Position numbers and translations under genes: made by a program. DNA of 26,824 nt from a virus (taxonomy: Duplodnaviria; Heunggongvirae; Uroviricota; Caudoviricetes), in IMG/VR virus record IMGVR_UViG_2671180673_000010, positions 1 to 26,824 of that record. One strand, 5' to 3'. Position 1 is the first letter of the stretch. Every line of letters starts with the position of its first letter. Below the pieces are notes generated by a model. It was not told where the DNA came from, did no database searches, and saw only the letters and a program-made list of their open reading frames with translations. Positions 1,376 to 26,824 of this stretch are shown here, in pieces.

Positions 1376-1403
1376 GGACAGCCCCATCACGGGGCTGTTT
1401 TTT
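1376..1403. terminator. Bidirectional intrinsic terminator shared by the 174-aa ORF (+) and the Q-P operon (-)
   Basis: Stem acagcccc (1378..1385) / ggggctgt (1391..1398), loop atcac, T6 downstream on plus strand and T5 on minus strand; Q stop codon sits in the loop. Confidence 0.55.
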
Positions 1404-4184: not shown

Positions 4185-4338
4185 TGCTCCCCCTGAGTAA
4201 TTACAGGAAGATTACCCGCGCGCGAAACTGTTCTCCTTAACCCTCTGTTCTGACTGTTTTCTTACAACAAAAGCCCTTTGTATCAGCCTGTTACGCTTTG
4301 CCATCATGACTGAAGAACCAGTCAGAGGGGCAAAAACT
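4185..4338. promoter_or_regulatory. Divergent late-promoter region between P (leftward) and O (rightward)
   Basis: Synteny with the P2 PP/PO divergent late promoters; an exact TGT-N12-ACA activator box was not found by eye, so this is positional inference only. Confidence 0.35.
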
Positions 4339-9000: not shown

Positions 9001-9142
9001 CCCACCCACATGGGGAAACCTCGGAATATGGGGCGACCGCCTTCTGGATGCACTGGAAACCTGTAACGCGGATAAACGGGCCATTGCTGAACTGGATAAG
9101 AGAATAGCCGAACTGACACACCAGACGGGAGTAACACAATGA
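8861..9142 (+). CDS. Outer-membrane lipoprotein spanin (Rz1 / LysC-like), overlapping the Rz gene in another frame
   Basis: Lipobox LLTGC 15 aa after the Met, Pro-rich stretch PVTPPPFPDPPTW; starts inside Rz and extends beyond it as in P2 lysB/lysC. Confidence 0.6.
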   Translation: MNAPTLCLTLVLLTGCAGTQNAPGPAPSVRLIPQTLTMPVTPPPFPDPPTWGNLGIWGDRLLDALETCNADKRAIAELDKRIAELTHQTGVTQ

Positions 9143-11016
9143 CCAGTAAGAACTTTGCACTGATTACAGCCATGACACAGGCTGAACTGACTCAAAAGGT
9201 GAATGAACATCTTGCGAAAGGGTGGCATCTTCAGGGGGAGACGCGGGTTGCCTACGAACCCGGCACCCCGTGGTATCTAATGCAGGCAATGGTGGCCGAT
9301 GGCACTACAGACATCTCACCTGATTCCCCCCAGCACGGCAGCGTGCCGGAGTGGTATTACGTGGTGGTACTTGCTGGTCAATCCAATGCCATGTCATATG
9401 GTGAGGGAATGCCGCTGCCGGATTCTTACGATGCGCCCCACCCACGCATTAAGCAACTGGCCCGTCGCAACACAGTGACTCCCGGTGGTAAAGCATGCGC
9501 ATTTAACGACATCATTCCGGCAGACCACTGCCTGCATGATGTTCAGGATATGAGCGCACTGAATCACCCGAATGCAGACCTGAGCAAAGGGCAGTATGGC
9601 TGTGTCGGACAGGGCTTGCATATTGCCAAACGCCTGTTGCCTTACATTCCACAGAATGCCGGGATTTTACTGGTTCCATGCTGTCGTGGTGGTTCGGCAT
9701 TCACCCAGGGCGCGGAGGGGACATTCAGCGAGTCCACAGGAGCCAGTCAGGATTCGGCTCGCTGGGGTGTGGGTAAACCTTTATATCAGGACCTGATTTT
9801 GCGCACGAAGGCCGCATTGCAGAAAAACCCAAAAAACATGCTGCTGGCCGTATGCTGGATGCAGGGCGAATTTGACATGAGCGCCGCTACGTACTCACAG
9901 CAACCTCCGCTGTTTACGGCCATGCTGAAACAGTTTCGTGCGGACATTACCGAGTTTAACACGCAGTGTCATGGAGGCAGAGCGGCAAGTGTGCCATGGA
10001 TTTGTGGTGACACGACGTATTACTGGAAAAACACCTACGGCACGCAGTACGACACCATTTACGGGGCGTACAAAAACAGGGAGAGCGACAACGTTTTCTT
10101 TGTGCCGTTCCTGACCGATGGTAGTGGCAACAATACCTCCACCAACGCACCAACGGAAGATCCGGATGCTGCAAGTGAGGGATATTACGGTTCGGCATCC
10201 CGAACGAACAAAAACTGGGTATCATCAAATCGCCAGACGCATTTCAGCTCATGGGCGCGTCGTGGCATTATTCCCGATCGTATGGCAACCGCTATTCTGA
10301 ACGTAGCCGGTCGCACCTTAGCCTTCATCAGTGGTAAGGCACCGGAAATCAAACCCTCGCCCGGCGGCGACACGCCATCGGGGCCGTCTGAAGATGCATC
10401 CGTACGCACAATCTCCCTGTTGCCGACAGCCGGAGATGCTGCTGCGCAGGGCTGGAGCATTAAGAATGGCGGAATTCAGTTGTCAGAAGGTGTATTTAAG
10501 ATCACCAAGCAGAGCAATAAAGCCTGGTCCCTGACGCGCCCGGTGGATGACGCAGTCTCCCTGCTGACACGGGGTGGCAGACTGAGCTGTAAGTTTCGAC
10601 TGTCAGGCGCACTGACCAACAAACAGTTCGGTCTGGGAATTTATCTGTATACCGATGTAGCGTTACCTGACGTCGTGGCGATGACCGGGACTGGTAACCC
10701 GTTCCTGATGTCGTTCTTCACCCAGACCACAGACGGCAAACTGAATCTGATGCATCACAAGAAAGCAGGAAACACAAAGTTGGGCGAGTTCGGGAATTAC
10801 AGTAACGACTGGCAGACGCTGGAGCTGGTGTTCACCGCCGGCAGTGCCACGGTTACTCCGAAACTGAATGGAGTGGCTGGCCCGGCATTCCAGGTCATAA
10901 AAGACAGTCTGACACTGGGGCTGAATGCGCTGACGTTAACTGATATCACTAAAAATGCCGCGTACGGCGTCGATATCGGCAGCCTGGTGCTGGAAATCAA
11001 TAATCCCGCAGCATAA
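9139..11016 (+). CDS. NanS-p-like sialate O-acetylesterase (SASA/SGNH-type) with small N-terminal domain and roughly 250-aa C-terminal domain
   Basis: VLAGQSNAMSYGEG (GQSN catalytic-Ser motif) and CWMQGEFD; N-terminal roughly 50 aa resembles DUF1737; start overlaps Rz1 stop (ATGA). Confidence 0.6.
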   Translation: MTSKNFALITAMTQAELTQKVNEHLAKGWHLQGETRVAYEPGTPWYLMQAMVADGTTDISPDSPQHGSVPEWYYVVVLAGQSNAMSYGEGMPLPDSYDAPHPRIKQLARRNTVTPGGKACAFNDIIPADHCLHDVQDMSALNHPNADLSKGQYGCVGQGLHIAKRLLPYIPQNAGILLVPCCRGGSAFTQGAEGTFSESTGASQDSARWGVGKPLYQDLILRTKAALQKNPKNMLLAVCWMQGEFDMSAATYSQQPPLFTAMLKQFRADITEFNTQCHGGRAASVPWICGDTTYYWKNTYGTQYDTIYGAYKNRESDNVFFVPFLTDGSGNNTSTNAPTEDPDAASEGYYGSASRTNKNWVSSNRQTHFSSWARRGIIPDRMATAILNVAGRTLAFISGKAPEIKPSPGGDTPSGPSEDASVRTISLLPTAGDAAAQGWSIKNGGIQLSEGVFKITKQSNKAWSLTRPVDDAVSLLTRGGRLSCKFRLSGALTNKQFGLGIYLYTDVALPDVVAMTGTGNPFLMSFFTQTTDGKLNLMHHKKAGNTKLGEFGNYSNDWQTLELVFTAGSATVTPKLNGVAGPAFQVIKDSLTLGLNALTLTDITKNAAYGVDIGSLVLEINNPAA

Positions 11017-11039: not shown

Positions 11040-11507
11040 ATGCTTAAGACAAACAGTCTGCGAGAGTCCATGCTTCATGGGTGTCGGTGGTGCCAGGCTA
11101 ATCCCGAGAAATTCACCATTTTCGTGGAGAGCGGCAACATTGAAACGACCGGAGAAGCGCCCTCGTTTGTTTACCGCTATCAGATGGTGATGTTTGTCAT
11201 GGATTACGCCGGAGAGCTGGACGACCTCACGCTGCCGCTGCTGGCGTGGTTATCCGAAAATCAGCCACAGTTGTTGCTCAATCCGGAGCGTAATCAGGAC
11301 ATCAAATTTTCTGCCGTTATCAATGACGATGACAGCGCCGATCTCCTGTTTACGCTCCCCCTGCGGGAACGCGTTCGCATCACGCGCAACAGTCAGGGCA
11401 CACCGCAGGCAGAACACCTGCCGGAGCCAAAACCCCGTCTGCCTTCTTCCGAAGGCGACTGGTCGCATGTATTCCAGGATGTGACGTGGGGTGAAAGCGA
11501 TGGATAA
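11040..11507 (+). CDS. R: Tail completion protein, P2 gpR homologue
   Basis: 155 aa, same length and position as P2 R. Confidence 0.8.
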   Translation: MLKTNSLRESMLHGCRWCQANPEKFTIFVESGNIETTGEAPSFVYRYQMVMFVMDYAGELDDLTLPLLAWLSENQPQLLLNPERNQDIKFSAVINDDDSADLLFTLPLRERVRITRNSQGTPQAEHLPEPKPRLPSSEGDWSHVFQDVTWGESDG

Positions 11508-12135
11508 GGCATTCACCCGCGTGGATGAAACCTTTGAGGCTATCCGCGACAGCCTGAATCAGCAGGCCATCAATAACATCGCCAGAAAGCTGGCACAGGA
11601 TTTACGTCGCGCCCAGCAGGCACGTATCCGGTCACAAAAAGCGCCGGACGGGACCGAATGGACACCACGCAGACGCCGCGTAACCCGGATACAGGAGCGC
11701 ATTCGCTTTATCTGGAATAACGAAGCACGCACGCTGAAAAACTGGCATCACGACACAGGGAAATACGGGCGAACCATTACCGGGTGGGATGAGGATAAAA
11801 ACAATATCCGCACGTTTTACCGGGATGACATCGACCGTTTTCTGGAAATACGCACCCGGCGCATCAACCAGGACAGCACAAAGCGCGTCCCCATGTTCGT
11901 AAAACTGCGCACCGCCCGCTACCTGAAAGCCCGTGCAGATGCCTCCGGTGTGACGGTGGGTTACAGCGGCGTGGCCGCACGTATTGCACGCGTTCATCAG
12001 TTCGGTGAGCGCGATCAGGTTGCGCCGGGCATTTTCACCGATTACCCGGTACGTGAGCTGTTGGGTATCAGCCAGGCAGATGAGCGCCTGATTTATAACA
12101 CGGTGCTGGGCCGGATTGCGGAGGCTGTACGGTGA
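11491..12135 (+). CDS. S: Tail completion / virion morphogenesis protein, P2 gpS homologue
   Basis: Position between R and V; overlaps R at the start and V at the end; start could instead be ATG 11500. Confidence 0.7.
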   Translation: MKAMDKAFTRVDETFEAIRDSLNQQAINNIARKLAQDLRRAQQARIRSQKAPDGTEWTPRRRRVTRIQERIRFIWNNEARTLKNWHHDTGKYGRTITGWDEDKNNIRTFYRDDIDRFLEIRTRRINQDSTKRVPMFVKLRTARYLKARADASGVTVGYSGVAARIARVHQFGERDQVAPGIFTDYPVRELLGISQADERLIYNTVLGRIAEAVR

Positions 12136-12713
12136 GCGCAGAACTCATGCGACTGCTGAGCAACATCATCCGCACCGGGATCATCTCTGAAGTTGATGAG
12201 AAGTCCTGGCGCGTGCGCGTTCGCAGCGGCGAACTGGAAACAGGCTGGTTGCGCTGGAACACCACGCGCGCGGGAGCCTTCAATGTGTGGCTGCCGCCAT
12301 CACCAGGCGAACAGGTGGTAATTGCCTGCATTGGCGGCAACCCGGAAACCGCCATGATAATTGGCAGCCTGTGGAGTGATGCCAGTCCGGCCCCCGGCAA
12401 AAGCCTGAAAGAAATCGTGGTCAGCGCGCCGGATGGCGCGGTGTTCCGCTACGACGCAGACGCTGGCGCACTGAGCGCCAGCGGCATGAAAACAGCCACC
12501 CTGCAGGCATCCGTCAGCGTGACACTGGATACGCCCGTCGTGGAATGCACAAACCTTCTGAGAACGGCGACGCTTGACGTCACAAAAGGGGGAAAGATGA
12601 GCGGCAATATCACGCACAGCGGCGGCAATTTCACCTCAAACGGCATTACCGTGCATACGCATAAGCACGGTGGCGTTAAAGGTGGCAGCGATTCGACAGG
12701 AGGCCCGCAGTGA
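12132..12713 (+). CDS. V: Baseplate spike/assembly protein, P2 gpV homologue (GTG start overlapping S stop)
   Basis: 193 aa with Gly-rich C-terminus HTHKHGGVKGGSDSTGG typical of gpV-type spikes. Confidence 0.8.
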   Translation: MSAELMRLLSNIIRTGIISEVDEKSWRVRVRSGELETGWLRWNTTRAGAFNVWLPPSPGEQVVIACIGGNPETAMIIGSLWSDASPAPGKSLKEIVVSAPDGAVFRYDADAGALSASGMKTATLQASVSVTLDTPVVECTNLLRTATLDVTKGGKMSGNITHSGGNFTSNGITVHTHKHGGVKGGSDSTGGPQ

Positions 12714-13960: not shown

Positions 13961-14480
13961 TTCACTGTTACCGCCATCAGCCAGCAATTTCATGCGTTGC
14001 GCCGAAGCTGTCGGAGCGCGCATTACAGACATCCCGGTAGACCTCAACACGCTGTGGTCACCGGACACCTGCCCGGTGCATCTGCTGCCTTATCTCGCCT
14101 GGGCATTTTCCGTTGACCGCTGGGATCGCAACTGGCCGGAAGAGACAAAGCGACAGGTGATTCGTGATGCATGGCTGATACACCGACACAAAGGAACCAT
14201 CAGCGCCCTGCGACGAGCCATTGAACCGCTGGGATACCTCATTCGCGTGTCTGAGTGGTGGGAGTTCGACGGCGAACCCGGAACATTCAAGGTTGATGTT
14301 GGCACGCTGGACAGTGGTGTGACCGAGGAAATGTATCTGGAAATGGAACGGCTGATTGCCGATGCCAAACCCGCAAGTCGGCACCTTATCGGCCTGAACA
14401 TTATCCAGGACATTCCCGGCTATCTGTATACAGGCGGTGTGGTCTGTGATGGTGATGTTATTACTGTTTATCCCGGATAA
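13953..14480 (+). CDS. I: Baseplate/tail protein I, P2 gpI homologue (ATG 13953 preferred over track start 13920)
   Basis: 175 aa; start overlaps J stop. Confidence 0.8.
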   Translation: MSNSLLPPSASNFMRCAEAVGARITDIPVDLNTLWSPDTCPVHLLPYLAWAFSVDRWDRNWPEETKRQVIRDAWLIHRHKGTISALRRAIEPLGYLIRVSEWWEFDGEPGTFKVDVGTLDSGVTEEMYLEMERLIADAKPASRHLIGLNIIQDIPGYLYTGGVVCDGDVITVYPG

Positions 14481-14490
14481 GTGAGAAACA

Positions 14491-17106
14491 ATGAGCACGA
14501 AATTTAAAACCGTTATCACTACTGCCGGAGCCGCGAAGCTGGCAGCCGCCACTGTTCCCGGCGGGAAAAAAGTAAACCCGTCTGCAATGGCTGTGGGTGA
14601 CGGTAATGGCCAATTGCCGGTGCCGGATGCCGGTCAGACGAAACTGGTGCATGAAGTCTGGCGTCACGCTCTGAATAAAGTCAGTGTGGATAACAAGAAT
14701 AAAAACTATATCGTGGCTGAACTGGTTGTTCCGCCAGAAGTGGGCGGCTTCTGGATGCGTGAGCTTGGTCTGTATGATGATGCCGGAACACTGATTGCGG
14801 TATCCAACATGGCAGAAAGCTATAAGCCAGAACTGGCTGAAGGCTCCGGACGTGCGCAGACCTGCCGCATGGTTATTATTCTCAGCAACGTGGCGTCCGT
14901 TGAGCTGAGTATTGATGCCAGCACAGTGATGGCGACGCAGGATTACGTCGATGACAAAATCGCAGAGCATGAGCAGTCCCGCCGCCATCCTGACGCCACG
15001 CTGACAGAAAAAGGTTTTACTCAGTTAAGCAGTGCAACAAACAGCACCAGTGAGTCATTGGCGGCAACGCCAAAAGCGGTCAAGGCAGCAAATGACAACG
15101 CAAATTCACGTCTGGCGAAAAATCAGAATGGTGCAGATATCCAGGATAAATCAGCTTTTCTGGACAATGTTGGCGTTACCAGCCTGACGTTTATGAAAAA
15201 CAACGGCGAAATGCCGGTTGATGCTGATCTGAATACATTTGGTCCCGTTAAGGCTTATCTGGGGATCTGGTCTAAAGCTACCTCAACTAACGCAACACTG
15301 GAGAAAAATTTCCCGGAAGATAATGCTGTCGGTGTGCTTGAGGTTTTTGCTGCCGGCAATTTTGCAGGCACGCAACGCTTTATCACGAGAGACGGCAATG
15401 TATACATGCGTAAACTCGCCAATAAGTGGAATGGCACTGATGGTCCGTGGGGCGCATGGCGTCACACTCAATCAGCGACCCGCCCTTTGAGTACGACTAT
15501 AGACCTGAATACGCTTGGAGCCGCCGAGCATCTTGGTTTATGGCGTAACAGTAGCTCGGCTATAGCTTCATATGAACGTAATTATCCAGAGGAAGGCGGC
15601 TTTGCTCAGGGGACGCTTGAGATCCTCGAAGGCGGGAATTATGGAAGAACGCAACGTTATACCACTCGCCGTGGAAATATGTATGTCCGCTGCCTTGCGG
15701 CAAGCTGGGATGCATCAAATCCGCAGTGGGAACCGTGGTTAAGAGTCGGTCATCAGTCAGAGAGTCGTTATTACGACGGGGATTTGAATGATGTGACTTC
15801 ACCAGGTATTTACAGCGTTACAGGTAAAGCGACCAACGGTCCAATACTGGACAGAAACGGCGTGACAGTCCTCGGTATTCTGGAGGTGTTGAGGCGCTTT
15901 GATGGTGTTAACGTATGGCAGCGTTATACAACTGCCGGAACAGCTGCAACCCTTAAAGGTCGCACGTTTGAGCGCGTCTATACCGGTAGCTCGTGGAGCG
16001 AATGGCGGGAAGTCTACACCTCGTATTCACTTCCCCTGAATCTGGGTATCGGCGGTGCTGTGGCAAAGCTCACCAGCCTGGACTGGCAGACCTACGACTT
16101 TGTGCCGGGCAGTCTGATAACCGTTCGGCTTGATAACATGACCAACATTCCCGACGGTATGGACTGGGGCGTCATTGATGGCAACCTGATAAACATCGCA
16201 GTGGGTCCGAGTGATGATTCCGGTACGGGGCGCTCAATGCATGTATGGCGCAGCACTGTAAGTAAAGCGAATTACCGCTTTTTTATGGTGCGTATTTCAG
16301 GAAATCCGGGAAGCCGCACGATCACGACAAGACGTGTGCCAATTATCGACGAAGCCCAGACATGGGCAGAGAAACAGACATTCAGCGGTGGTCTTTCAGG
16401 TGAACTGTCCGGCAATGCTGCTACAGCGACAAAGCTGAAAACGGCAAGGACAATTAACGGCGTAAAATTTGACGGGTCGGCAAATATCGAAGCGTTTCCG
16501 CCAGGTGTTCCGTTGCCGTGGCCATCAGATACACCACCTGCGGGCTATGCAATTATGCAGGGGCAGACGTTCGATAAGGCTGCATATCCGAAACTGGCTA
16601 TAGCCTATCCTTCAGGTGTTATTCCAGATATGCGCGGCTGGACAATCAAGGGCAAACCCGCCAGTGGGCGAGCCGTATTGTCACAGGAGCAGGACGGGAT
16701 TAAATCGCATACTCACAGCGCCAGTGCGTCAAATACGGATTTGGGAACGAAAACGACCAGTTCATTTGATTACGGCACGAAGACGGTCAGTACGTTTAAC
16801 CACGGCACAAAATCAACGAACAATACGGGCAATCATACGCACACTGTCGGTGGTGTTTATGGCGGCGACTCTGTCGGTGGAAAACAGCGTGTACAGGCTT
16901 CAGGAAACAATCAGGTGTCCAGCACCGCCGGAGCGCACGCCCATACGGTGGATATTGGTCAGCATAACCACACTGTAGGTATTGGTGCCCATGCACACAC
17001 TGTGGCCCTGGGTGCGCACGGACACACCATCACGGTAAATGCTACGGGTAATACCGAAAACACCGTCAAAAACATCGCATTTAACTATATTGTGAGGCTT
17101 GCATAA
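14491..17106 (+). CDS. H: Tail fibre protein, P2 gpH homologue with divergent C-terminal receptor-binding region
   Basis: N-terminal roughly 200 aa nearly collinear with P2 gpH ([21 protein letters not shown]..., [22 protein letters not shown]...); C-terminus has tandem repeats and a HxHTV-rich tip. Confidence 0.9.
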
Positions 17107-17681
17107 TGGCTTTCAGAATGAGTGCAGAAGCACAAACTATCCGCGTTTTCAATTTACTTGATGGAACCAATGAATTTATTGGTGAAAGTGACGCATATAT
17201 TCCGCCGCATACAGGTCTGCCTGCAAACAGTACAGATATTGCACCGCCTGATATTCCGGCGGGTTATGCAGCCGTTTTCAATGCAGATGAAATGAAATGG
17301 GAACTGATGGAAGACCATCGCGGAAAGACCGTCTATGAAACGAAAACGGGAGCAGCCATTTATATTTCTGAACTTGGCGTATTACCTCCAGACGTGACAG
17401 CCATTTCCCCGGAGGGGGATTATCAGAAATGGAACGGCAATGCGTGGGTGAATGATGAGAATGCAGAGCGTGATGCGCTTGTCAGAGCGGCTGACTCTCA
17501 GAAGAAAGAGCTGATTGCATATGCAGGTGAAATTATTGCCACTCTGCAGGATGCTGTCGATTTAGATATGGCTACCGAGGAAGAAAAGTTAAGCCTGACA
17601 CACTGGAAAAAATACCGTGTGCTACTGAATCGCGTTCAGCCGGAAAATGCCCCTGATATCGAATGGCCAGAATTAGTGTAA
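17106..17681 (+). CDS. G: Tail fibre assembly chaperone, P2 gpG / Tfa homologue
   Basis: 191 aa directly downstream of H, start overlapping H stop (TAATG). Confidence 0.8.
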
Positions 17682-17702
17682 AGGCAAGATGATTTAAGGA
17701 AC

Positions 17703-17732
17703 AAAACCGCCAATATGTTTATTAGCGGTTTT
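17703..17732. terminator. Bidirectional intrinsic terminator between convergent G (+) and U (-)
   Basis: Stem aaaaccgc (17703..17710) / gcggtttt (17725..17732), 14-nt loop; A-run on one side and T-run on the other. Confidence 0.5.
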
Positions 17733-17740
17733 GCATTAAG

Positions 17741-18235
17741 TCAAAACAACCCTTTAACGGAGCTGGCCGCGCTGTTAAGAGATGATGTGACCTTATCTTT
17801 GAAGCCGGACAGCATATCGCTGAACGATGAGGATTGCAGGCGCTCCCGCAAATCCTCATCACAGCGTTCAAGGGTCAGTGAAAATTCTATCTTTTTCGCC
17901 TTACCGTAGCGATCAAACTCGGAACGGGTCGTATTCGTTTCGGTCAGGACATACATGCCGTAAATCTGCCCGACGCCATCAATCAGAGGCCAGGGTCGTC
18001 CTGTATACGCCTGCGTGGTCAGCAGCGACAGCGACACTTCGCCACCTGTAATTTCAGGATAAAGCACACCAGAAAGAACGATGCGATCATCACCTGCACC
18101 GATATACTGCCAGCTTGCTGAACGGTTAACGCGTTCATTTTTCACATGCCGCCAGCTTTTGTTTTGCTGTAACTGCTGATGCGGCAGCGTGCGCAGCTCA
18201 AAAACAAACATGCCGTAGATCATCATCATGGCCAT
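17741..18235 (-). CDS. U: Tail protein U, P2 gpU homologue
   Basis: 164 aa; N-terminus MAMMMIYGMFVFELRTLPHQQLQ resembles P2 gpU from memory. Confidence 0.8.
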   Translation of the reverse strand: MAMMMIYGMFVFELRTLPHQQLQQNKSWRHVKNERVNRSASWQYIGAGDDRIVLSGVLYPEITGGEVSLSLLTTQAYTGRPWPLIDGVGQIYGMYVLTETNTTRSEFDRYGKAKKIEFSLTLERCDEDLRERLQSSSFSDMLSGFKDKVTSSLNSAASSVKGLF

Positions 18236-18241
18236 GACTCC

Positions 18242-21085
18242 TCAATCTTTATCGTAAAAACTGCCACGCCCGGCACGGGCGCGCCGTTCCATTTCTGCCC
18301 TGACCATTTCACCGACCAGTTTCGCCAGTTCGCGGGGATTCTGCGTAACAACGTTATGCAGATGAACATGAATTTCACCACCAAATCCGGAGGCAACAGG
18401 CTCCCGGTTACGGGAAGTTACAGGAACTGATGCCACTGGAGATCGTATAGCCTCCGCCACCGGGCGGGAGCTGGCCGCAACAACAGGGACCAGCGCCGGA
18501 GGCAGCGGAGCCGGGACCACGGGTGTGATATTAATTGCGGGGGCAGGCTTACTGACCTGCGCAATCTTCCGCTCCTGCCACTCCCCACGAACAGCAAGTG
18601 CTCGGGGCAGGTTTTTAAAGACAATATCGCCGGGGCCAATGCGTTTTTTCGTCTCCTCAACCAGCTTACCTGTGTTATCAGCAATTTTGCTGAGTCTGCG
18701 CAGCGTACCGGTATTGCTGTCTGTGAGCGGTTTATTGTCTTTGGGGTTATCACCTCCGGTGCCATTGCCATTTTCCACAGGCTTCGGCGGATTGATTTTC
18801 GCCAGGTCCCCCTGAAGCAAGGCAACCTTGTCCTGAAGAATGGCCGCACGCTGTGCGTCTTCGATTTTCTTGCGCGCCCTTTCCGCTTCATCCGGAAGCA
18901 CACCAAGCTTTTCAAGTATCCACGCCAGCGTATCCAGCAACATTTTTGCAGGTGTCAGAACAAGTTGTAACGCACCGCCAAGAACGTTACCGAATATCTC
19001 GCCAGCACTGGTACATTTATCCAGAGTTTCCTTGCTGGACTCCATCGGAGACAGCAGCGATTTAAACCAGTTAAACACCTGGCTGATCCCACTCCCGATT
19101 GCGTCAAAAACAGGACCAAACCGTTCAAAGGTTTCGCGCAACGGGGTCAGCCTTTCCATAATCCCGCTGAACACCCCGGCAAAAAATGCCCTGATGGGAT
19201 CCCAGTATTTCCAGATGAGAACGGCAGTTCCGGCAAGCGCAGCCACGATAAGGCCGACCGGACTGAACAACGCCCCGATAGCGCCCCCCAGTAACGAAAC
19301 GGAACCCGTCACCATTCCCCATAGTGCTGGCAGGAGTCTGACAGCATTCATTGAACCGGTCAGGAGGGAAAAGCCAAGACGCAGTTTTGCCAGCGGGCCA
19401 GCAAGCACACCAATAGCCAGCGACAACGAGCCAACCGTTGCAGTCATTGCCAGCAACGCACCGCCTGCTATCAGTAGCTGGCGCGTCAGTACCGGATGGG
19501 CCTGCGCCAGCGAGGTGATTTTTTCAAGCACCCGCGTGAGCCACTGCGTGACAGAACGCAGCGGACCGTCAACCAGATCACTGATGCGAATACGAAGACC
19601 TTCCCATGCGCTGTCGAGATTTTTCAGGTCCCCATCAAGATTATCGGCCATTACTTTTGCAACGCGATCGGCCTCTCCCCTTGCCCCCTGCAATTCTCTG
19701 GTCAGTTTTTGCAGCTCTCCTGAACCAGCCGCCGCAACAAGCGTCTGCAAACCAACGAACGCCTCTTCTCCGGCGATGTCCTTGAAGAAGGAAACCTGGT
19801 CCACCTGTCCGTATTTTTGTGTCGCCTTATAGAGATCAAGCAGCACATCCTCCATCGGGCGCATTTTGCCTCTGGCGTCAGCAACTGACACCCCCAGCTC
19901 TTTCAGCGCATCAGCCGCAGCTTTTGGCGGTGATGCAAGGCGGGACAGACTTGCGCGCATGGCCGTACCAGCATCGCTTCCACGAAGACCATTATTGGCA
20001 AGCATCCCGGCCATGGCTGCCGCTTCTTCAAGACTGATACCAAGTTTTGCGGCAACCGGACCGGTATACTTCATGGTTTCGCCCAGCGCGCGTAAATCAG
20101 TATTGGTCCGGGTGAATGCCGCTGTCAGCGTATCGCCAACCCGGTCCATTTGATCGGCTGTCAGGTTGAACTGTGTGAGGATATTGGAGCCTATATCAGC
20201 CGTCTCGCCGAGTTCGACGCCACCTGCCAGCGCCATATTAAGAACACCGGGCAATGCGGCCTGAATGGCCTGCGGAGTAAAACCAGCCATTGCCAGAAAG
20301 CTCTGCCCACTGGCGGCATCACTCGCAGTAAACTGTGTTTCAGAGCCAAGTTTTAACGCCTGCTCACGCAGCGCCTTAAACTGCGGGCTGTTTTTGTCGA
20401 TTCGCGTCAGCGCCTGAACGCGGGACATCTCTTTGCCGAACCCGATCGCGGGCTGCAAAAAACGCCCGGCAGCATAGCCGCCCGCCGCTGCCGCACCAAT
20501 TGCCAGCGCACCACCTGTTTTCAGTTTTCCCGCGGTTTCCTGCGCGCGCGAATACCGCTCACGAGCCTGCGTTACACGCGCAAGCGCCTGCCGTTCGCGT
20601 TCAAGCTGGTTGTTGTATTGTTCGGTGCGTCTGATGGCCTGCTGGATGGTGTTATCGCTGCCTGTCAGGGAAATGCCGTGGCGTTTCAGTTCTCCGCCAA
20701 GCTCCCGCATTTTCTGAATTTCCCGTGTGCGCGATTCATTCAGGCGTTCAAGCCGGGTGCTTAACTGCTGCATCAGCTTTTGTTGTTTTTCGCTGAGCAC
20801 TGTACCCGTGCGTTGTAACTGATTAAGGGCGTTAAGCTGGCGTCGTGCTTTCACGATACCCGCATCCGCTTTACTGACAGCGTCGCGGGCGCGCTCAAAT
20901 GAACGCGCCTGACGCTCGAGATTTTTGATCGCCCCCTGCGTTCGCTGAATGGAGTCACCAAACTGCCCCATCAGGCGGCGGGCGTTTTCGGCAGGCCGGG
21001 TCAGCCTGTCAACGGCGCTGAAAGCGACCCGGATGTCAAGAGTCTTCATTATCTGCATTCCCGCTGCGAAGTGCCGCCCGCTCAC
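18242..21085 (-). CDS. T: Tail tape-measure protein, P2 gpT homologue
   Basis: 947 aa, Ala/Gly-rich with long helical stretches, start overlapping the E' extension; track start 21085 is GTG, and ATG at 21058 or 21049 are alternatives. Confidence 0.85.
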   Translation of the reverse strand: MSGRHFAAGMQIMKTLDIRVAFSAVDRLTRPAENARRLMGQFGDSIQRTQGAIKNLERQARSFERARDAVSKADAGIVKARRQLNALNQLQRTGTVLSEKQQKLMQQLSTRLERLNESRTREIQKMRELGGELKRHGISLTGSDNTIQQAIRRTEQYNNQLERERQALARVTQARERYSRAQETAGKLKTGGALAIGAAAAGGYAAGRFLQPAIGFGKEMSRVQALTRIDKNSPQFKALREQALKLGSETQFTASDAASGQSFLAMAGFTPQAIQAALPGVLNMALAGGVELGETADIGSNILTQFNLTADQMDRVGDTLTAAFTRTNTDLRALGETMKYTGPVAAKLGISLEEAAAMAGMLANNGLRGSDAGTAMRASLSRLASPPKAAADALKELGVSVADARGKMRPMEDVLLDLYKATQKYGQVDQVSFFKDIAGEEAFVGLQTLVAAAGSGELQKLTRELQGARGEADRVAKVMADNLDGDLKNLDSAWEGLRIRISDLVDGPLRSVTQWLTRVLEKITSLAQAHPVLTRQLLIAGGALLAMTATVGSLSLAIGVLAGPLAKLRLGFSLLTGSMNAVRLLPALWGMVTGSVSLLGGAIGALFSPVGLIVAALAGTAVLIWKYWDPIRAFFAGVFSGIMERLTPLRETFERFGPVFDAIGSGISQVFNWFKSLLSPMESSKETLDKCTSAGEIFGNVLGGALQLVLTPAKMLLDTLAWILEKLGVLPDEAERARKKIEDAQRAAILQDKVALLQGDLAKINPPKPVENGNGTGGDNPKDNKPLTDSNTGTLRRLSKIADNTGKLVEETKKRIGPGDIVFKNLPRALAVRGEWQERKIAQVSKPAPAINITPVVPAPLPPALVPVVAASSRPVAEAIRSPVASVPVTSRNREPVASGFGGEIHVHLHNVVTQNPRELAKLVGEMVRAEMERRARAGRGSFYDKD

Positions 21086-21574
21086 GCCAGCTAACCACTT
21101 CGCCGGGCGTCATCATGAAGATTTCGGCGGGCGACCAGTTGAAAATGGCGGCAATATCCGCCACCAGATCTTCGATGTGCTCAAAGCACACCAGGGTGAT
21201 TACGCTGCCGTCTCCTGCACGCTCTTCGCGCCAGAGTCTGGCTCGCTCATAAAATTTACAGCCACAGCGCACAACTGAATAAAATCGCGTGACGACATTT
21301 TTTTAATCATCACTTCATCCAGTCGTGGCGAGGTCACGCGAGGCAACAGCGTGAACATGGTATCCGCTTTCAGATTCAGCACATCAGACAGCGACAGACC
21401 ACGCAGGGATCCCGCCTGCTCAATAGCCCCGGTGATCTCCACATATGTGATTTTTTCGGCACCACGCTCAATTGGCCGGGAAAGTTTTACACCACGTTCG
21501 ACAGCCATATCCTCACCTGACGTCACATCATCCGCTACGGTGTTATTCCGGGTTTCAGTATCGATATCTTTCAT
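21036..21574 (-). CDS. E+E' programmed -1 frameshift product (shift inferred at the A7 run 21298..21304)
   Basis: -1 frame is open from just after TAA at 21305..21303 down to 21036 and overlaps the T start; A AAA AAA T run lies in E codons 91-92. Confidence 0.55.
21200..21574 (-). CDS. E: Tail assembly chaperone, P2 gpE homologue
   Basis: 124 aa immediately upstream of T and downstream of FII. Confidence 0.75.
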   Translation of the reverse strand: MKDIDTETRNNTVADDVTSGEDMAVERGVKLSRPIERGAEKITYVEITGAIEQAGSLRGLSLSDVLNLKADTMFTLLPRVTSPRLDEVMIKKMSSRDFIQLCAVAVNFMSEPDSGAKSVQETAA

Positions 21575-21629
21575 CAGTTGTCTCCTTTTCAGTCAGAGGC
21601 GACGCACTGCGCCGCCTGCATATTACTTA

Positions 21630-22142
21630 TCAGCCAAGCCCAAGCGCGGAACGAATGCGGTCAGGCACAATGTCCTTGCCGTCCTTCCGGTAGATGTGGT
21701 TCAACAGGTCGATTTCCCACAGCGGGCGATCGTTAACGCTCAGCTTGTAGTAGGTGTTTTTGACAGCGTAAGTGTGTGATGTGGCTTCGCCCTGTTTGGC
21801 CTCCCCCATATCAATTTCCGTCACACGCCCGCGCATCTCGATTTCATACAGATCGCTTTCTGCATCGGTGTAATATTCACCCGCAAAACGCAGCAGCGTG
21901 CCGTCAATCGTGCCGCCATACTTAAGGAACAGTGCACGAACAGCTCCCCCCATGACAAAGCTCGCATCAAGCGCGGAGTCGTCCAGACCGAGATCAATAC
22001 TTACTGCTCCCATCATGCCACCACCACGATAGCTGTCGGTTTTGCGCGTCAGTTTGGGCGGCGTGACGGATGTCACTTTACCCACTTCGTTTTCACCATC
22101 CACAAACAACGTAAAAAAGCGAAGATGTTTTGGTACAGCCAT
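21630..22142 (-). CDS. FII: Tail tube protein, P2 gpFII homologue
   Basis: 170 aa, start overlaps FI stop. Confidence 0.85.
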   Translation of the reverse strand: MAVPKHLRFFTLFVDGENEVGKVTSVTPPKLTRKTDSYRGGGMMGAVSIDLGLDDSALDASFVMGGAVRALFLKYGGTIDGTLLRFAGEYYTDAESDLYEIEMRGRVTEIDMGEAKQGEATSHTYAVKNTYYKLSVNDRPLWEIDLLNHIYRKDGKDIVPDRIRSALGLG

Positions 22143-23326
22143 CAGGCACCTCCCAGCACCGCAAATGCGGGACCAAAGAATTCATCAGTAAACGTCTGGT
22201 AAAGCTCCATGTCTTCCAGCGGGGGAACGGGCGTATATTTGTAGCGAATACGCACACGCCCCTGACGTAAATCCGTGGTGCCGTTATCCACCACGTCATA
22301 CCAGCACTCCGCGCCAATCAGTTTCCCGGCAGTAACCAGCGAATCCAATTTTGCCCTGATGGCACTGATAACATCCTTCACGTTCGCAGGCGTCAGTGGA
22401 CTGTCGATGGTTTCAAACTGCGCTTCCGCAATTGAATCAGCCAGCACCTGTGCGGTTCGGGTATACACCTCAAAGATGTAGGCGTTCGTTTCCGGTGTGC
22501 GGTTGCCCCAGAAGCGGAACCCGTTACGACGAATAATGGTCGTGATTTCTTTGTTGTTGAGGCTGTTGGCATCACTGTCTTCGGCCTGTAACGACCAGAA
22601 CACATGCCTCGACATCCCCAGCACATTTTTAACCGGAACGTTGGACAGCGATTTGTGCCAGCCCTGCTCATGGTCAATGTACGCACGAAGGCCGCACGCA
22701 TAAGCAGGCGCGGGGAACGTTTCGTTTTTGCCACTTTTCGGGTTGTAGGCGATGAAGTCAGGCCATAAGAGCATCACCTCACGTTCGTTGAATTTCTGGC
22801 GGTAGGTAATCGCCTCAGCCATCGTGTTACAACCATGACATGTGGCATACACAAACGCGCGCAGTTTACCCGCAATCACGCACAGGGATTTTGTCACCGC
22901 CTCCGTGTCCAGCTCCGGCGCGGCCAGAATACGCGGACGGTATCCGATGCTTTCATCCTGCTCTGCAACAAGCAGCGCATACATCCCCGTATAGCTGCCG
23001 TCAGATTCAGAACCACCGATAACCAGTTGATCCTGCGTCCTACCGCCTTCTTCTTTGTGTTCAGCCACGCGAACGACGATCACTTTTGTGCTCACCTGGT
23101 CTGCGATAGCCTTAAGCGCACGATAAAGCGTCCCCGTAGTCCCGCATTTTCCCAGCACGTCATTGACGCGGGTCAGCAGTGTGGGCTTGTTCAGCGGGAA
23201 CAGCTCCGCATCCGCATCATCCGCCGTTGCCACGATACCGATAACGCTGGAATCAACATCATTAATCGCTGTTACCAGGTCGGTACTTTCCGTGACACGG
23301 GCACCATGAAAACGAGTTTCACTCAT
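22142..23326 (-). CDS. FI: Tail sheath protein, P2 gpFI homologue
   Basis: 394 aa, size matches gpFI (396 aa); first gene of the leftward tail operon. Confidence 0.9.
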   Translation of the reverse strand: MSETRFHGARVTESTDLVTAINDVDSSVIGIVATADDADAELFPLNKPTLLTRVNDVLGKCGTTGTLYRALKAIADQVSTKVIVVRVAEHKEEGGRTQDQLVIGGSESDGSYTGMYALLVAEQDESIGYRPRILAAPELDTEAVTKSLCVIAGKLRAFVYATCHGCNTMAEAITYRQKFNEREVMLLWPDFIAYNPKSGKNETFPAPAYACGLRAYIDHEQGWHKSLSNVPVKNVLGMSRHVFWSLQAEDSDANSLNNKEITTIIRRNGFRFWGNRTPETNAYIFEVYTRTAQVLADSIAEAQFETIDSPLTPANVKDVISAIRAKLDSLVTAGKLIGAECWYDVVDNGTTDLRQGRVRIRYKYTPVPPLEDMELYQTFTDEFFGPAFAVLGGA

Positions 23327-23483
23327 AGCTTCAGCCCCTTGTATCCGTTAAATGATTCGGCAACAATCATCACCCACCACGCGCGTAATCTCACCCCTGC
23401 GCCGTTCTCCCGCCACGGCGACAACAAAAAGCAGTAACCCCCTCCGCACGCACATGCGACCATGCCGCACAGGGAGGGAGCAG
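23327..23483. promoter_or_regulatory. Divergent promoter region for the leftward FI-FII-E-T-U operon and the rightward D-ogr genes
   Basis: 157-bp intergenic gap between divergent gene starts; no exact Ogr-box found by eye. Confidence 0.35.
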
Positions 23484-24593
23484 ATGACCGACACCACCAT
23501 GCAATTGCTCAGTCAGGGCACAGACCCCGTGAAAATGCCGGATTTTGATATTCTCGCGGAGGGTAAAACGCTGTCAGGCGTGGCAGAGCGCCTGATGAGC
23601 CTGTCACTGACCGACAACCGGGGATTTGAGGCGGACCAGCTCACCATCACGCTGGATGATGCGGATGGTCAGTTGCAGCTACCGCCACGGGGCGCGCGCC
23701 TGACGGTTCTCATTGGCTGGAAAGGAGAACCGCTGACAGAAAAAGGCACTTACATTGTTGATGAAATCGCTCACGAAGGACCGCCGGACAGGCTGACTGT
23801 TTCAGCCAGAAGCGCAGATTTTCGGGATGAATTTAACGTTAAACGTGAGGTGTCCTGGCATGATGTGACCGTTGAGCGTGTGGTATCCGCCATCGCTCAT
23901 CGGTATGGTCTGAAACCGCAAATCAGCGAAATGCTGATGGATATCGAAATCGACCACGCCGACCAGACCGAAGAAAGCGACATGTCCTTCCTTACGCGCA
24001 TGGCGGAAATGCTGGGCGCAATCACCACGGTAAAAAGCGGTAATCTGTTATTCATCATGCCCGGCGGTGGCGTGAACGCACAGGGCCAGCCGTTGCCATC
24101 GTTTGCCATCACACGCAGCAGCGGCGATCGCCATCAGTTCCGCATTGCTGACCGCGAAGCGTATACGGGGGTACGCGCTTACTGGCTTGATCTTAATTAC
24201 GGGAAAAAGAAAAAAGTCAGCGTGAAACGCCGTAAACCGCCAAAACCCAAAAAGGAGAAAAGCAGCAGCCGCGAAGGTGATTATATGGAAGGCGCGGAAG
24301 GCAATGTGTTTGTGTTACGCAAGACTTATCAGAACGAGCAGGCAGCAAGACGCGCAGCGGCGGCAAAGTGGCAGCAACTACAACGCGGAGCCGCATCATT
24401 CTCCATCACGCTGGCGCGTGGACGTGCAGAACTCTACCCCGAAATGCATGGCACGGTAACAGGATTTAAAAGCGAGATTGATAATCAGGACTGGATCATT
24501 GCAAAAGCCGAGCACACCATTGATAACAGCGGTTTTACCACGCAGCTTGAGCTTGAGGCAAAAATCCCGGAATGGATAGCGGAAACAGAGTGA
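23484..24593 (+). CDS. D: Tail protein D (late gene), P2 gpD homologue (ATG 23484 preferred over track start 23352)
   Basis: GGGAGGG SD 6 nt upstream of ATG 23484; 369 aa; position next to ogr. Confidence 0.85.
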   Translation: MTDTTMQLLSQGTDPVKMPDFDILAEGKTLSGVAERLMSLSLTDNRGFEADQLTITLDDADGQLQLPPRGARLTVLIGWKGEPLTEKGTYIVDEIAHEGPPDRLTVSARSADFRDEFNVKREVSWHDVTVERVVSAIAHRYGLKPQISEMLMDIEIDHADQTEESDMSFLTRMAEMLGAITTVKSGNLLFIMPGGGVNAQGQPLPSFAITRSSGDRHQFRIADREAYTGVRAYWLDLNYGKKKKVSVKRRKPPKPKKEKSSSREGDYMEGAEGNVFVLRKTYQNEQAARRAAAAKWQQLQRGAASFSITLARGRAELYPEMHGTVTGFKSEIDNQDWIIAKAEHTIDNSGFTTQLELEAKIPEWIAETE

Positions 24594-24633
24594 GCAACTT
24601 AGAATAGGCAGCACCACGTTAAGGGAGGTCGCT

Positions 24634-24894
24634 ATGTTCCGTTGTCCGCTTTGTGGCGCATCTGCCCGTATCCGCACCAGTCGTCCGGAAAATGATTCAA
24701 ACACCGTGCGGCAAAAGTATTACCAGTGTAACAATCTGGAATGCGGCGTATGCTTCTCAACACTGGAAGCTTTCCATAAATTCACATCAAAACACGCCTC
24801 CGGCGTTCACTCTTCAGAAGGTATCCCGTGGCATGATCTGCCAGCTTCACACAGGGGAAACAATCAGATGAGTTTGCCTTTATCTCAGAATTAA
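24634..24894 (+). CDS. ogr: Ogr/Delta-family zinc-finger late transcription activator
   Basis: MFRCPLCGASARIRTSR...YYQCNNLECG matches the P2 Ogr pattern MFHCPLC...YHQCQNVNC (Cys4 finger); AAGGGAGG SD. Confidence 0.85.
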   Translation: MFRCPLCGASARIRTSRPENDSNTVRQKYYQCNNLECGVCFSTLEAFHKFTSKHASGVHSSEGIPWHDLPASHRGNNQMSLPLSQN

Positions 24895-25085
24895 CAGGCA
24901 GAATTGCCGGAGTAACAAAAAAGCGATAGATTACGTGCGGGTGCCTTTCGGCTGATGGTCGGAGGGAATACCCGAAGGCCAGATGTGGAAAGGCCCCGAG
25001 TCAACTTTAACGTTAACCCGAGGCCCTAACCATCTACCCTCAGCAAGTGATAGGTTAGCGCCTCCCCGAAAAAGGAGCAAGCGCT

Positions 25086-25226
25086 ATGTCGCAAAAATCG
25101 CTTACGGCCATCACATTCTGCGTGACGGCAATCCTCATCATCTGGATGCTGCACGGTTCGCTGTGTGAAATACGGATGAGTTTCTGGGGAGCGGAGTTTG
25201 CGGCGTTCTTACAGTGTAAGCAGTAA
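25086..25226 (+). CDS. Hok/Gef-family type I toxin (46 aa), not in the ORF track
   Basis: MSQKSLTAITFCVTAILIIWMLHGSLCEIRMSFWGAEFAAFLQCKQ: N-terminal TM segment, SLCEIR motif identical to Hok, conserved Cys positions; AGGAG SD 7 nt upstream. Confidence 0.7.
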   Translation: MSQKSLTAITFCVTAILIIWMLHGSLCEIRMSFWGAEFAAFLQCKQ

Positions 25227-25320
25227 GGAAACCGCGACGGGGAAGGCAACTTCCCCGTCAATCGGTTGCCAGGGTAAAGGTCGAAAAGGCACCCTATTTC
25301 CAGTTGACGTGAACAACAAG

Positions 25321-25352
25321 CCCGCAGCGTAAAAACTGCGGGTTTTCTTTTT
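25321..25352 (+). terminator. Intrinsic terminator downstream of the hok-like ORF
   Basis: Stem cccgcag / ctgcggg with 8-nt loop, followed by ttttcttttt. Confidence 0.6.
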
Positions 25353-25383
25353 GGTTCCCTCACTCATGAGGACACCAAAAAAC

Positions 25384-25415
25384 AAAGCCCACAGCATAGA
25401 AGCTGTGGGCTTTTT
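25384..25415. terminator. Bidirectional intrinsic terminator (12-bp perfect stem)
   Basis: aaagcccacagc-atagaa-gctgtgggcttt with A6 upstream and T5 downstream. Confidence 0.6.
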
Positions 25416-25490
25416 GCATTCAAAGATGGACGTTATATGGACACTTAAAAATAAAATCCATTTATTTTCAAATGATTAAACCTCTACTTA

Positions 25491-25531: not shown

Positions 25532-26824
<1,293 letters not shown>

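Follow-up and report, generated by a model that had tools for sequence, protein, structure and literature searches.

An inverted tail operon is the ordinary late-region layout of P88-like prophages

Gene organization of the late region

The window, a stretch of 26,824 nucleotides from a Caudoviricetes record (IMG/VR IMGVR_UViG_2671180673_000010), carries all the late genes of a P2-type phage, namely Q, P, O, N, M, L, X, the lysis genes, R, S, V, W, J, I, H, G, FI, FII, E/E′, T, U, D and ogr, as judged from the map of open reading frames (ORFs), Pfam searches of the tail genes and the megablast annotation of relatives. The ORF map and the Pfam matches place H and G on the plus strand, U, T, E/E′, FII and FI on the minus strand, and D and ogr on the plus strand again. 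The ORFs and strands given in a preliminary description of this DNA are confirmed, as are its spacings of 59 bp between G and U and 157 bp between FI and D. The features of the tail region are as follows.

14491–17106, plus strand: H, tail fibre (Pfam Phage_tail_fib, Phage_fiber_2, Collar)
17106–17681, plus strand: G, tail fibre assembly protein (Pfam Caudo_TAP, 2e-39)
17682–17740, intergenic: convergent G–U spacer, 59 bp (G stop at 17681, U stop at 17741)
17741–18235, minus strand: U, tail protein, last gene of the leftward tail operon (Pfam Phage_P2_GpU, 5.5e-39)
18242–21049, minus strand: T, tape measure protein (Pfam PhageMin_Tail; annotation of relatives)
21200–21574, minus strand: E
21036–21574, minus strand: E+E′ (predicted frameshift product)
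21630–22142, minus strand: FII, tail tube (Pfam Phage_tube, 2.1e-45)
22142–23326, minus strand: FI, tail sheath, first gene of the leftward operon (Pfam Phage_sheath_1, Gp18_domIII_N, Phage_sheath_1C)
23327–23483, intergenic: divergent FI–D gap, 157 bp (FI ATG at 23326, D ATG at 23484)
23484–24593, plus strand: D, tail baseplate hub protein, read away from FI (Pfam Phage_GPD, 3e-17)
24634–24894, plus strand: ogr, late-gene activator, 40 bp past D (Pfam Ogr_Delta, 5e-14)

The reading frame of T stays open to a GTG at 21085, and the ATG at 21049 agrees with the 935-residue annotation of relatives. Near the end of E, a slippery run of seven A residues (21298–21304) marks the start of a match to Pfam Phage_P2_GpE (E value 2.9e-12) in the −1 frame, which is open from 21302 to a stop codon at 21036. 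E and E+E′ have the make-up of a tail chaperone pair, with a slippery run and a −1 ORF whose GpE domain overlaps the start of T; the E+E′ product is a predicted −1 frameshift in the A run, read through to the stop at 21036, and relatives have a ‘GpE family phage tail protein’ annotated at the E′ position. D encodes 369 residues, the same length as D of P88 and Fels-2, and its ATG is preceded by the Shine–Dalgarno sequence GGGAGGGAG. A longer ORF starting at 23352 was considered and judged unlikely to mark the real start of D.

The convergent junction of G and U

The G–U spacer contains a hairpin (17702–17733) with 14-bp arms, bordered by an A-run on one side and a T-run on the other (AAAA and TTTT). 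The folding energy is −20.8 kcal/mol on the plus strand and −22.0 kcal/mol on the minus strand (z = −5.1 and −6.3), and none of 200 shuffled sequences folded as well on either strand. The hairpin has the features of a two-way Rho-independent terminator and is predicted to act as one; a generic terminator scan missed it because its loop and bulge fall outside the rules of the scan. It is conserved downstream of U in E. coli relatives, and it is the terminator of the U operon, inherited from the lineage rather than made for this junction. The two-way terminator of the preliminary description is supported as a prediction by the folds and shuffles, but its view that the terminator is dedicated to the junction does not, as the hairpin is kept after U in relatives.

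The fibre genes to the left of the spacer have a different history. The I′–H–G cassette (approximately 14051–17700) is of P2 type, Peduovirus-like, and has been swapped in; it is the only part of the window with that affinity, the gene order as a whole departing from the canonical P2/Peduovirus order. The H region shares about 92% DNA identity with Peduovirus P2 and P22H1 over 14051/14061–16457, phage P24A7b matches the window over 14051–17672, and G is 100% identical in protein to that of the phage-plasmid pN10e; the N-terminus of H in P88 has only 60% protein identity to that of the window. Breakpoint mapping places the resumption of P88-type homology at approximately 17703, which is the stop codon of a DNA invertase gene in relatives, with only the last few bases of that gene left. 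A P2-type I′–H–G cassette replaced the invertase together with the fibre segment, the right crossover falling at the invertase stop codon. The swap left the 59 bp and the inherited U terminator, which would now also end the H–G transcript.

An exact 30-mer across the G–U junction recurs in three more contigs of P88 type, two of them approximately 94% identical to the window and one 99.5% identical, and also in pN10e-type phage-plasmids that keep a 93-nucleotide fragment of U; it is present in five independent contigs from IMG/VR and metagenomes, as well as in pN10e. That a junction of the window type might be common in E. coli was rejected, with 0 of 5426 complete E. coli genomes containing it at a coverage of at least 80%. 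On this count the invertase-less variant with this cassette is rare, though the inversion itself is common (see below).

The space between G and U is the variable slot of the clade. In most E. coli relatives it is occupied by a serine (Cin-type) DNA invertase gene and an alternative fibre/tfa segment that can invert; other relatives carry either an acetyltransferase gene or one with DUF262 there, and the window has no gene. A second slot, between D and ogr, contains recognisable defence genes in relatives (Shedu SduA, a GmrSD-annotated gene and a HEPN-like protein) and is empty in the window. Because both positions are empty, the window adds no defence genes at either; PADLOC, applied to the esterase gene of the window and the small ORFs at its left end, returned no defence matches.

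P2 carries Z/fun between G and FI, and this hotspot, just past the fibre genes, holds fibre swaps, a DNA invertase and other cargo (iLund4u preprint, 10.1101/2024.10.15.618418); in the hotspot papers, mentions of the Z/fun locus concern only fibre swaps and invertases. The slot of the P88-type clade is likewise a variable position past the fibre genes, but its right neighbour is the 3′ end of U, not the 5′ end of FI. That the Z/fun slot is empty, as had been proposed, is therefore literally true, but cargo in this clade sits between G and U and between D and ogr rather than between G and FI, the first position normally holding fibre and invertase cargo in E. coli relatives and the second being the site of the recognisable defence genes.

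Comparison with P2-like phages

The phages closest to the window, Xuanwuvirus P88 and P884B11, Gemsvirus 500465-2, Citrobacter phage PhiSM and Escherichia phage PhiR44_2, are 91–96% identical to it in DNA over 17700–24700 and have an identical layout, with U-T-E/E′-FII-FI on the minus strand and D-ogr on the plus strand, an FI–D gap of 156–157 bp and the U terminator hairpin. P88 and PhiSM are described as active temperate phages (PMC5285337, PMC6456863). Most of these five phages differ from the window in having a DNA invertase and an inverted alternative fibre/tfa segment between G and U. PhiR44_2 is also without the invertase, but through a different deletion, which leaves a 254-bp gap and the 3′ end of the invertase gene. 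Conversely, the window carries a gene for a 625-residue esterase that many relatives lack.

Identity to the P88 group is 94–96% over 74–86% of window positions 1–25000, but because the window does not extend into the early and integration half of the prophage, these values assign neither a genus (Xuanwuvirus or Gemsvirus) nor a whole-genome identity. The genus criterion of the ICTV is approximately 70% identity over the whole genome.

The late regions of P2, 186 and Fels-2 are built from the same genes (J, I, H, G, FI, FII, E/E′, T, U, D and ogr), and have counterparts of the predicted E/E′ frameshift of the window and of its putative Ogr-type late-promoter boxes approximately 55 bp upstream. 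In these phages, however, all of the genes are co-directional, FI is only 46–48% identical to that of the window, and the boxes are perfect copies of TGT-N12-ACA, one per promoter. In Fels-2, U overlaps D by 4 bp and a Cin-type invertase lies between G and FI. Relative to all three, the FI–U block of the window is inverted and D is uncoupled from the F operon, as the preliminary description had held with respect to P2.

In other genera, Klebsiella phage ST16-OXA48phi5.4 (Reipivirus) and Serratia phage KSP20, with FI proteins 68–71% identical to that of the window, also have an inverted FI–U block and a divergent D (and ogr). ST16-OXA48phi5.4 has a DUF262-domain gene and a hypothetical gene between U and the fibre gene. 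In the record of Serratia phage KSP20, a gene like P2 gpD and one like gpFI are already annotated as divergent.

The inversion is the fixed layout of the clade

Orientation of the tail block follows the relatedness of FI. All 23 genome loci with an FI 69–98% identical to that of the window are inverted, and they span approximately 13 genera of Enterobacterales (Salmonella, Citrobacter, Edwardsiella, Enterobacter, Kosakonia, Symbiopectobacterium, Erwinia, Mixta, Pantoea, Izhakiella, Kluyvera, Trabulsiella and Serratia), whereas all 34 loci with an FI at most 48% identical are co-directional, in P2 order. The inversion is also shared by approximately 44 deposited records of phages whose FI is at least 60% identical. 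Every close relative examined carries it, including published viable phages: P88, PhiSM, PhiR44_2, the Klebsiella Reipivirus and Serratia KSP20 all have this layout. Of 5426 complete E. coli genomes, 1356 contain the FI–D junction at a coverage of at least 80% and 1416 contain U; a recombinase gene adjoins U in all 24 chromosomal records among the matches listed. The layout is common to relatives with FI at least 69% identical and absent from more distant P2-type phages, and both of its junctions occur in many independent genomes.

The inverted order could in principle be produced by assembly, through a mis-joined or flipped contig segment, and the sole hint of this is that the exact G–U junction was found in no complete E. 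coli chromosome. The independent occurrence of the junctions, FI–D in the 1356 E. coli genomes and the G–U 30-mer in the five contigs and pN10e, refutes an artefact, and each junction also carries signals, a predicted terminator between G and U and a conserved control region between FI and D; such an error has practically no chance of being the explanation. The established arrangement that had been suggested for the lineage is in this respect upheld by independent genomes. A recent rearrangement specific to this prophage, amounting to a novel architecture, would fit the difference in layout from P2, 186 and Fels-2, but the 23 inverted loci in some 13 genera and the phage records, Serratia KSP20 included, leave it next to no probability.

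A further alternative is that FI–U is a programmed, reversible segment, flipped by a site-specific invertase such as the neighbouring Cin-type enzyme. A serine invertase gene does adjoin one end of the block in E. coli relatives (that of P88 has Resolvase and HTH_7 domains), and such an enzyme, acting at pseudo-sites, could in principle have made the original inversion. However, all 30 inverted loci have the same orientation, with none flipped back; no inverted repeats flank the block, the search for them turning up only chance-level pairs within coding sequence; and the window has no cix/gix/hix-like core AAACCNNGGTTT, even with one mismatch allowed. Nor does the window hold an invertase gene: tblastn with the P88 invertase gave no match, and the window has no second tfa and does not qualify as a Cin/Gin/Hin-type fibre system. 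Most clade members outside E. coli have no invertase either, which also argues against the neighbouring enzyme as the cause of the original inversion. Flipping would, in addition, leave FI without its promoter region and U without its terminator. A switchable segment is accordingly regarded as very improbable. We favour an old inversion, with one end between the fibre region and FI and the other between U and D, which would have given rise to the present layout of the clade.

Taken together, the window is, with high confidence, the late region of a P88-like prophage (Xuanwuvirus/Gemsvirus-type, Peduoviridae) located beside serS, in which the FI-FII-E/E′-T-U orientation is that fixed throughout the clade and expression is proposed to depend on an Ogr-type box. 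The inverted layout is already known and ordinary, because it is the normal, fixed layout of a large and already sequenced branch of P2-like phages, with the P88 group present in roughly one in four complete E. coli genomes. A literature search found no explicit statement of the FI–U inversion, although genome maps and records show it, and the words ‘invert’, ‘orientation’ and ‘synteny’ are absent from the P88 paper (PMC5285337). The preliminary description, which gave the inversion weight unless the orientation proved common in close relatives, is not followed on this point, since the synteny comparison found it to be so.

The control region between FI and D

The divergent gap between FI and D measures 156–181 bp in 30 of 30 inverted loci (the window and 29 others). 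In the window, it contains an Ogr-type box, TCT-N12-ACA, at 23406–23423, which lies within the extended motif GTTCT-N12-ACAAC (23404–23425) and is followed by AAAAAG. A −10-like GATGAT for FI is located on the minus strand at 23366–23371, and a −10-like TGcGACCAT for D on the plus strand at 23455–23463. The centre of the box is 46 bp from the −10-like hexamer on each side in 27 distinct gap sequences, and both hexamers, like the box, are conserved across genera, the box in approximately 13.

Ogr-dependent late promoters of P2 type have a TGT-N12-ACA dyad near −55, a weak −10 element and no −35 element. The box of the window is one mismatch from this consensus; most members of the clade have TCT or CCT in place of TGT, and Kluyvera has the perfect TGT-N12-ACA. 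The search pattern was relaxed from TGT-N12-ACA after phylogenetic footprinting. The P2 consensus itself has only three matches in the window, fewer than expected by chance and none at a late-promoter position. The exact extended motif GTTCT-N12-ACAAC occurs in three copies, against 0.04 expected, and two of these sit in P–O and FI–D, the only gaps that separate divergent late genes. In Fels-2, used as a positive control, TGT-N12-ACA precedes both FI and V and also occurs in the P–O gap, with the hexamer at the same 46-bp offset. A generic sigma-70 scan detected no promoter in the FI–D gap; this outcome would be expected of activator-dependent promoters, yet offers them no support.

Two further elements were noted. 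The third copy of the extended motif lies inside T (18964–18985) and is not conserved in all relatives. In the E. coli group, a CGCGCG-TAATCT element at 23379–23390 is similar to the P promoter core and could serve as a further promoter reading rightward.

From the conservation and geometry of the FI–D gap, we infer that one Ogr-type box may drive both FI–U and D–ogr. Because the centre of the box is exactly 46 bp from each hexamer, Ogr bound there would sit at approximately −55 of both the leftward and the rightward promoter. The leftward transcript would run from FI to U and end at the hairpin at 17702–17733, and the rightward transcript would cover D and probably continue into ogr. In such a scheme, the tail operon would keep its late control despite the inversion, and D would gain a late promoter of its own. 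That the single box is a truly bidirectional late activator site, switching on the inverted tail operon and the D–ogr operon together, is put forward tentatively, at slightly below even probability.

Alternatively, the layout could be the norm of the lineage while FI–U and D use separate sites or regulators, or D–ogr relies mainly on another promoter, such as the 23379–23390 element or one proximal to ogr, and the central box would then not be bidirectional. P2-type late promoters are normally described with one box each, and the P–O gap of the window has two boxes 20 bp apart, one for each direction; the likeness of the TAATCT element of E. coli members to the P promoter core and a sigma-70-like match upstream of ogr (24456–24485) point the same way. 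Against this, the FI–D gap has a single box-like dyad that is conserved across genera, exactly equidistant from the two hexamers in the 27 distinct gaps, and the 23379–23390 element is not conserved outside the E. coli group. This alternative is considered rather unlikely, though a real competitor to a shared box.

Implications

The inversion carries little weight as a discovery, the layout being present in dozens of deposited and classified phage genomes, but, as a synteny marker, it cleanly sets the P88-type clade, whose FI is at least 69% identical to that of the window, apart from phages of the P2/186/Fels-2 type. Annotation and hotspot surveys that assume P2 gene order should allow for it. 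The FI–D region provides a compact, testable case of one putative activator box placed symmetrically between two predicted divergent late promoters. If this box does act in both directions, the site that drives the tail genes would also exert direct positive feedback on ogr, and the late control of P2 would have been rewired alongside an ancient inversion, perhaps stabilising it.

Gene content of the late region

The window is the late region of a P2-like phage. Gene identities were assigned from the ORF map and Pfam scans.

Features of the late region, in window coordinates
1387–4184, minus strand: Q and P (ORF map, Pfam)
Plus strand, upstream of the esterase-like gene: O, N, M, L, X, holin and endolysin
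9139–11016, plus strand: esterase-like gene, 625 aa, between the lysis genes and R
Plus strand, between the esterase-like gene and H: R, S, V, W, J and I
14491–17106, plus strand: H
17106–17681, plus strand: G
17741–18235, minus strand: U
18242–21049, minus strand: T (ORF open to 21085)
21200–21574, minus strand: E
21630–22142, minus strand: FII
22142–23326, minus strand: FI
23484–24593, plus strand: D
24634–24894, plus strand: ogr
25532–26824: serS, a host gene, 3′ of ogr and of a hok/gef-type locus

E′ is real: its frame (−1) is open from 21302 to a stop at 21036 and begins in an A7 run (21298–21304), and Pfam Phage_P2_GpE matches the −1 frame of E (2.9e-12). The start of D is likely the ATG at 23484, since it is preceded by GGGAGGGAG and yields a 369-aa product, the length of D in P88 and Fels-2.

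The 625-aa protein contains DUF1737, SASA (sialate O-acetylesterase-type) and DUF6645 domains, and is presumably similar to the NanS-p esterases of Stx prophages; its gene looks like cargo (a moron), being present in only some P88-type relatives. Three small ORFs (103, 76 and 187 aa) at 317–1372, upstream of Q, where P2 has its old/tin hotspot, gave no Pfam match, and the 103-aa and 187-aa ORFs gave none in a PADLOC scan. At the right prophage end, between ogr and serS, lie a hok/gef-type toxin locus (24983–25420), annotated in relatives as Hok/Gef or MokW-like, and several strong hairpins (25235–25413).

The inverted FI–U block is standard in P88-type phages

The preliminary description reported that the FI–U block is inverted between G and D, and the ORF map, Pfam, sequence and folds upheld every particular: a 59-bp G–U spacer carrying a hairpin, and a 157-bp FI–D gap. 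The hairpin (17702–17733) has 14-bp arms with an A-run on one side and a T-run on the other, and folds at −20.8 and −22.0 kcal/mol on the two strands (z = −5.1 and −6.3), as well as which none of 200 shuffles folded. The same hairpin, AAAACCGCTAAT...ATTAGCGGTTTT, lies 3′ of U in other E. coli members, and U is also trailed by hairpins in other genera, but different ones; the U-side hairpin is a property of the lineage.

The arrangement is not unusual. The preliminary description was to count as refuted if close relatives commonly had this orientation, and they do. By megablast, 13 phage records match 17000–24700 with 87–91% coverage and 91–96% identity, including Xuanwuvirus P88 and P884B11, Gemsvirus 500465-2, 520873, 503458, Citrobacter PhiSM, PhiR44_2 (a complete phage record, host given as E. 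coli C) and Chuche. Relatives are annotated, as in the window, with U-T-E′-E-FII-FI on the minus strand and D on the plus strand. P88 and PhiSM are reported to be active temperate phages (PMC5285337; PMC6456863). IS100 (IS21-family) transposase genes are annotated in the matching stretch of NC_049344.1 (520873) and NC_049341.1 (503458); these two records more likely represent defective prophages than viable phages. Among 5426 complete E. coli genomes, the divergent FI–D junction (22900–23900) is present at at least 80% coverage in 1356, nearly all at 95% identity or more, and the U end of the block in 1416.

An FI protein scan using one genome per species (GTDB set) yielded 57 loci, on all of which J, I, H, G, U, T, E, FII, FI, D, ogr and the P88 invertase were placed by tblastn. 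Where FI is 69–98% identical, the inverted block and divergent D-ogr occur in 23 of 23 loci, whereas at 48% identity or less the P2 order J-I-(H-G)-FI-FII-E-T-U-D(-ogr) on a single strand occurs in all 34. The inverted loci come from Salmonella, Citrobacter, Edwardsiella, Enterobacter, Kosakonia, Symbiopectobacterium, Erwinia, Mixta, Pantoea, Izhakiella, Kluyvera, Trabulsiella and Serratia, with one record labelled Vagococcus. This last (NZ_JBQPOM010000071.1, Vagococcus sp. WN89Y) is a 226-kb contig with a P88-type prophage whose FI is 98% identical to that of the window; given the Gram-positive genus label, contamination or mislabelling is most likely.

Among phage records, FI is at least 60% identical in about 44 and below 60% in 360. 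Klebsiella phage ST16-OXA48phi5.4 (genus Reipivirus) is inverted like the window, as is Serratia phage KSP20, in whose own record the gpD-like and gpFI-like genes are already annotated as divergent. In Fels-2, by contrast, the genes all run in one direction; U and D overlap there by 4 bp, and a Cin-like invertase separates G from FI. Given the split of orientations by FI identity, together with the inverted Reipivirus and KSP20, the inversion is an old, fixed, clade-defining character. It is how P88-type Peduoviridae are normally organised, and many classified and published genomes already show it; being an established lineage arrangement, as the preliminary description had itself inferred, it is an ordinary finding.

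A reversible switch of the FI–U block is very unlikely, because neither flanking inverted repeats nor a cix-like core was found and the flipped-back orientation occurs in 0 of 30 inverted loci.

The fibre cassette and the G–U junction

In E. coli relatives, the G–U slot holds an inverted alternative tfa and fibre C-terminus with a serine DNA invertase (Resolvase and HTH_7 domains). In PhiR44_2, a deletion took the alternative segment and all but the 3′ end of the invertase. The slot contains a DUF262-domain gene and a hypothetical gene in the Klebsiella Reipivirus. In E. coli B-1109 (L006:4151–5142) it is occupied by a hexapeptide-repeat acetyltransferase gene; this prophage remnant, next to dmsABC and serS, has lost everything on the left side of a partial G. 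In many members from outside E. coli, G and U simply converge.

The P88-type homology of the window breaks at about 14050 and restarts at about 17703, the invertase stop codon in relatives. Between these points, 14051/14061–16457 is about 92% identical to Peduovirus P2 and P22H1, and 14051–17672 matches P24A7b. This P2-type stretch flanked by P88-type homology shows that the invertible fibre system was replaced by a P2-type I′-H-G cassette.

Among E. coli chromosomes the resulting junction without an invertase is rare, none of 5426 genomes reaching 80% coverage of it. An exact 30-mer across the G–U breakpoint was found in three contigs from IMG/VR and two from metagenomes. Two of the contigs carrying it, L066 and L067, are complete P88-type tail regions and, at only about 94% identity to the window, independent genomes, which speaks against an assembly artefact; a third, L070, is 99.5% identical. 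The E. coli phage-plasmid pN10e (L003:11807–12534), which has an unrelated P2-like tail module, and contigs L068 and L069 carry window-type G, the 59-bp spacer, the hairpin and a 93-nt U pseudogene fragment adjoining repA; G of pN10e is 100% identical in protein. The dead U fragment travelling with G, spacer and hairpin shows that a fibre cassette was copied from a window-type phage that had exactly this junction. The cassette replacement, which removed the invertase system, is the sole window-specific point, and its junction recurs elsewhere.

Cargo slots

The G–U interval had been equated with the P2 Z/fun defence slot and called empty. It is empty, but the recognisable defence genes of the clade sit between D and ogr instead: Shedu SduA in L067 (L067:660–2015; PADLOC 1e-208, Pfam SduA_C), a gene annotated as GmrSD restriction endonuclease in E. 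coli O103:H2 12009 (L004:16231–17814), and a 340-aa protein of 500465-2 (L002:13001–14023) whose HEPN-like match is weak and falls short of the Pfam gathering cut-off. In the window this slot is empty too, as D and ogr are 40 bp apart (24594–24633). The contents of the two slots in the clade fit a hotspot survey that describes the P2 Z/fun locus as a hotspot of mixed purpose, where fibre swaps, other cargo and often DNA invertases occur, and that reports another hotspot towards the right end of the late region (10.1101/2024.10.15.618418).

A putative symmetric control region between FI and D

The FI–D gap measures 156–181 bp in 30 of 30 inverted loci, and alignment of its 27 distinct sequences revealed conserved islands amid diverged DNA. 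The first is a dyad, T(C/G)T-N12-ACA, followed by ACAAAAA (23406–23430 in the window), which in Kluyvera is a perfect TGT-N12-ACA. The second, on the FI strand, is GATTAT or GATGAT, and the third, on the D strand, TGnAATCAT, TGnGATCCT or TGcGACCAT. In the sequences examined the dyad centre lies exactly 46 bp from the hexamer on either side, except for a 1-nt D-side offset in loci L011 and L012, which would place it at about −55 of both putative promoters. Ogr-dependent late promoters of P2 have their box at about −55. Fels-2, used as a control, has a perfect TGT-N12-ACA at three sites: directly 5′ of FI, directly 5′ of V and within the P–O gap. These boxes come with a weak hexamer at the 46-bp offset of the window clade.

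In the window, GTTCT-N12-ACAAC occurs in three exact copies against 0.04 expected: in the P–O gap (46 bp from TAATCT facing P), in the FI–D gap and inside T. The copy inside T (18964–18985, minus strand) is kept by some but not all E. coli relatives, and may be an internal promoter or may have arisen by chance. In the P–O gap (4185–4305), two Ogr-box-like dyads, TGT-N12-TCT at 4229 and TCT-N12-ACA at 4249, are spaced 20 bp from one another. Each has a −10-like hexamer at a distance of 46 bp (TATCAG facing O and TAATCT facing P), an arrangement that suggests interleaved divergent late promoters. S (11491–12135) overlaps V (12132–12713) at 12132–12135, leaving no intergenic gap, whereas the S–V gap of Fels-2 measures 68 bp and contains a TGT-N12-ACA box (P_V); in the window lineage a separate V promoter may be missing or may lie inside S.

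Expression of FI–U and of D may be governed by a single element. One putative Ogr box would drive a leftward promoter for FI-FII-E/E′-T-U, with the transcript ending at the hairpin at 17702–17733, and the same box would drive a rightward promoter for D. The D transcript would probably run on into ogr, since the two genes are separated by only 40 bp and a scan of this gap found no plus-strand terminator-like site. The main alternative is separate or additional promoters, such as CGCGCG-TAATCT at 23379–23390, an element confined to E. coli members. The symmetric FI–D control region with its putative single box would be a small, testable addition.
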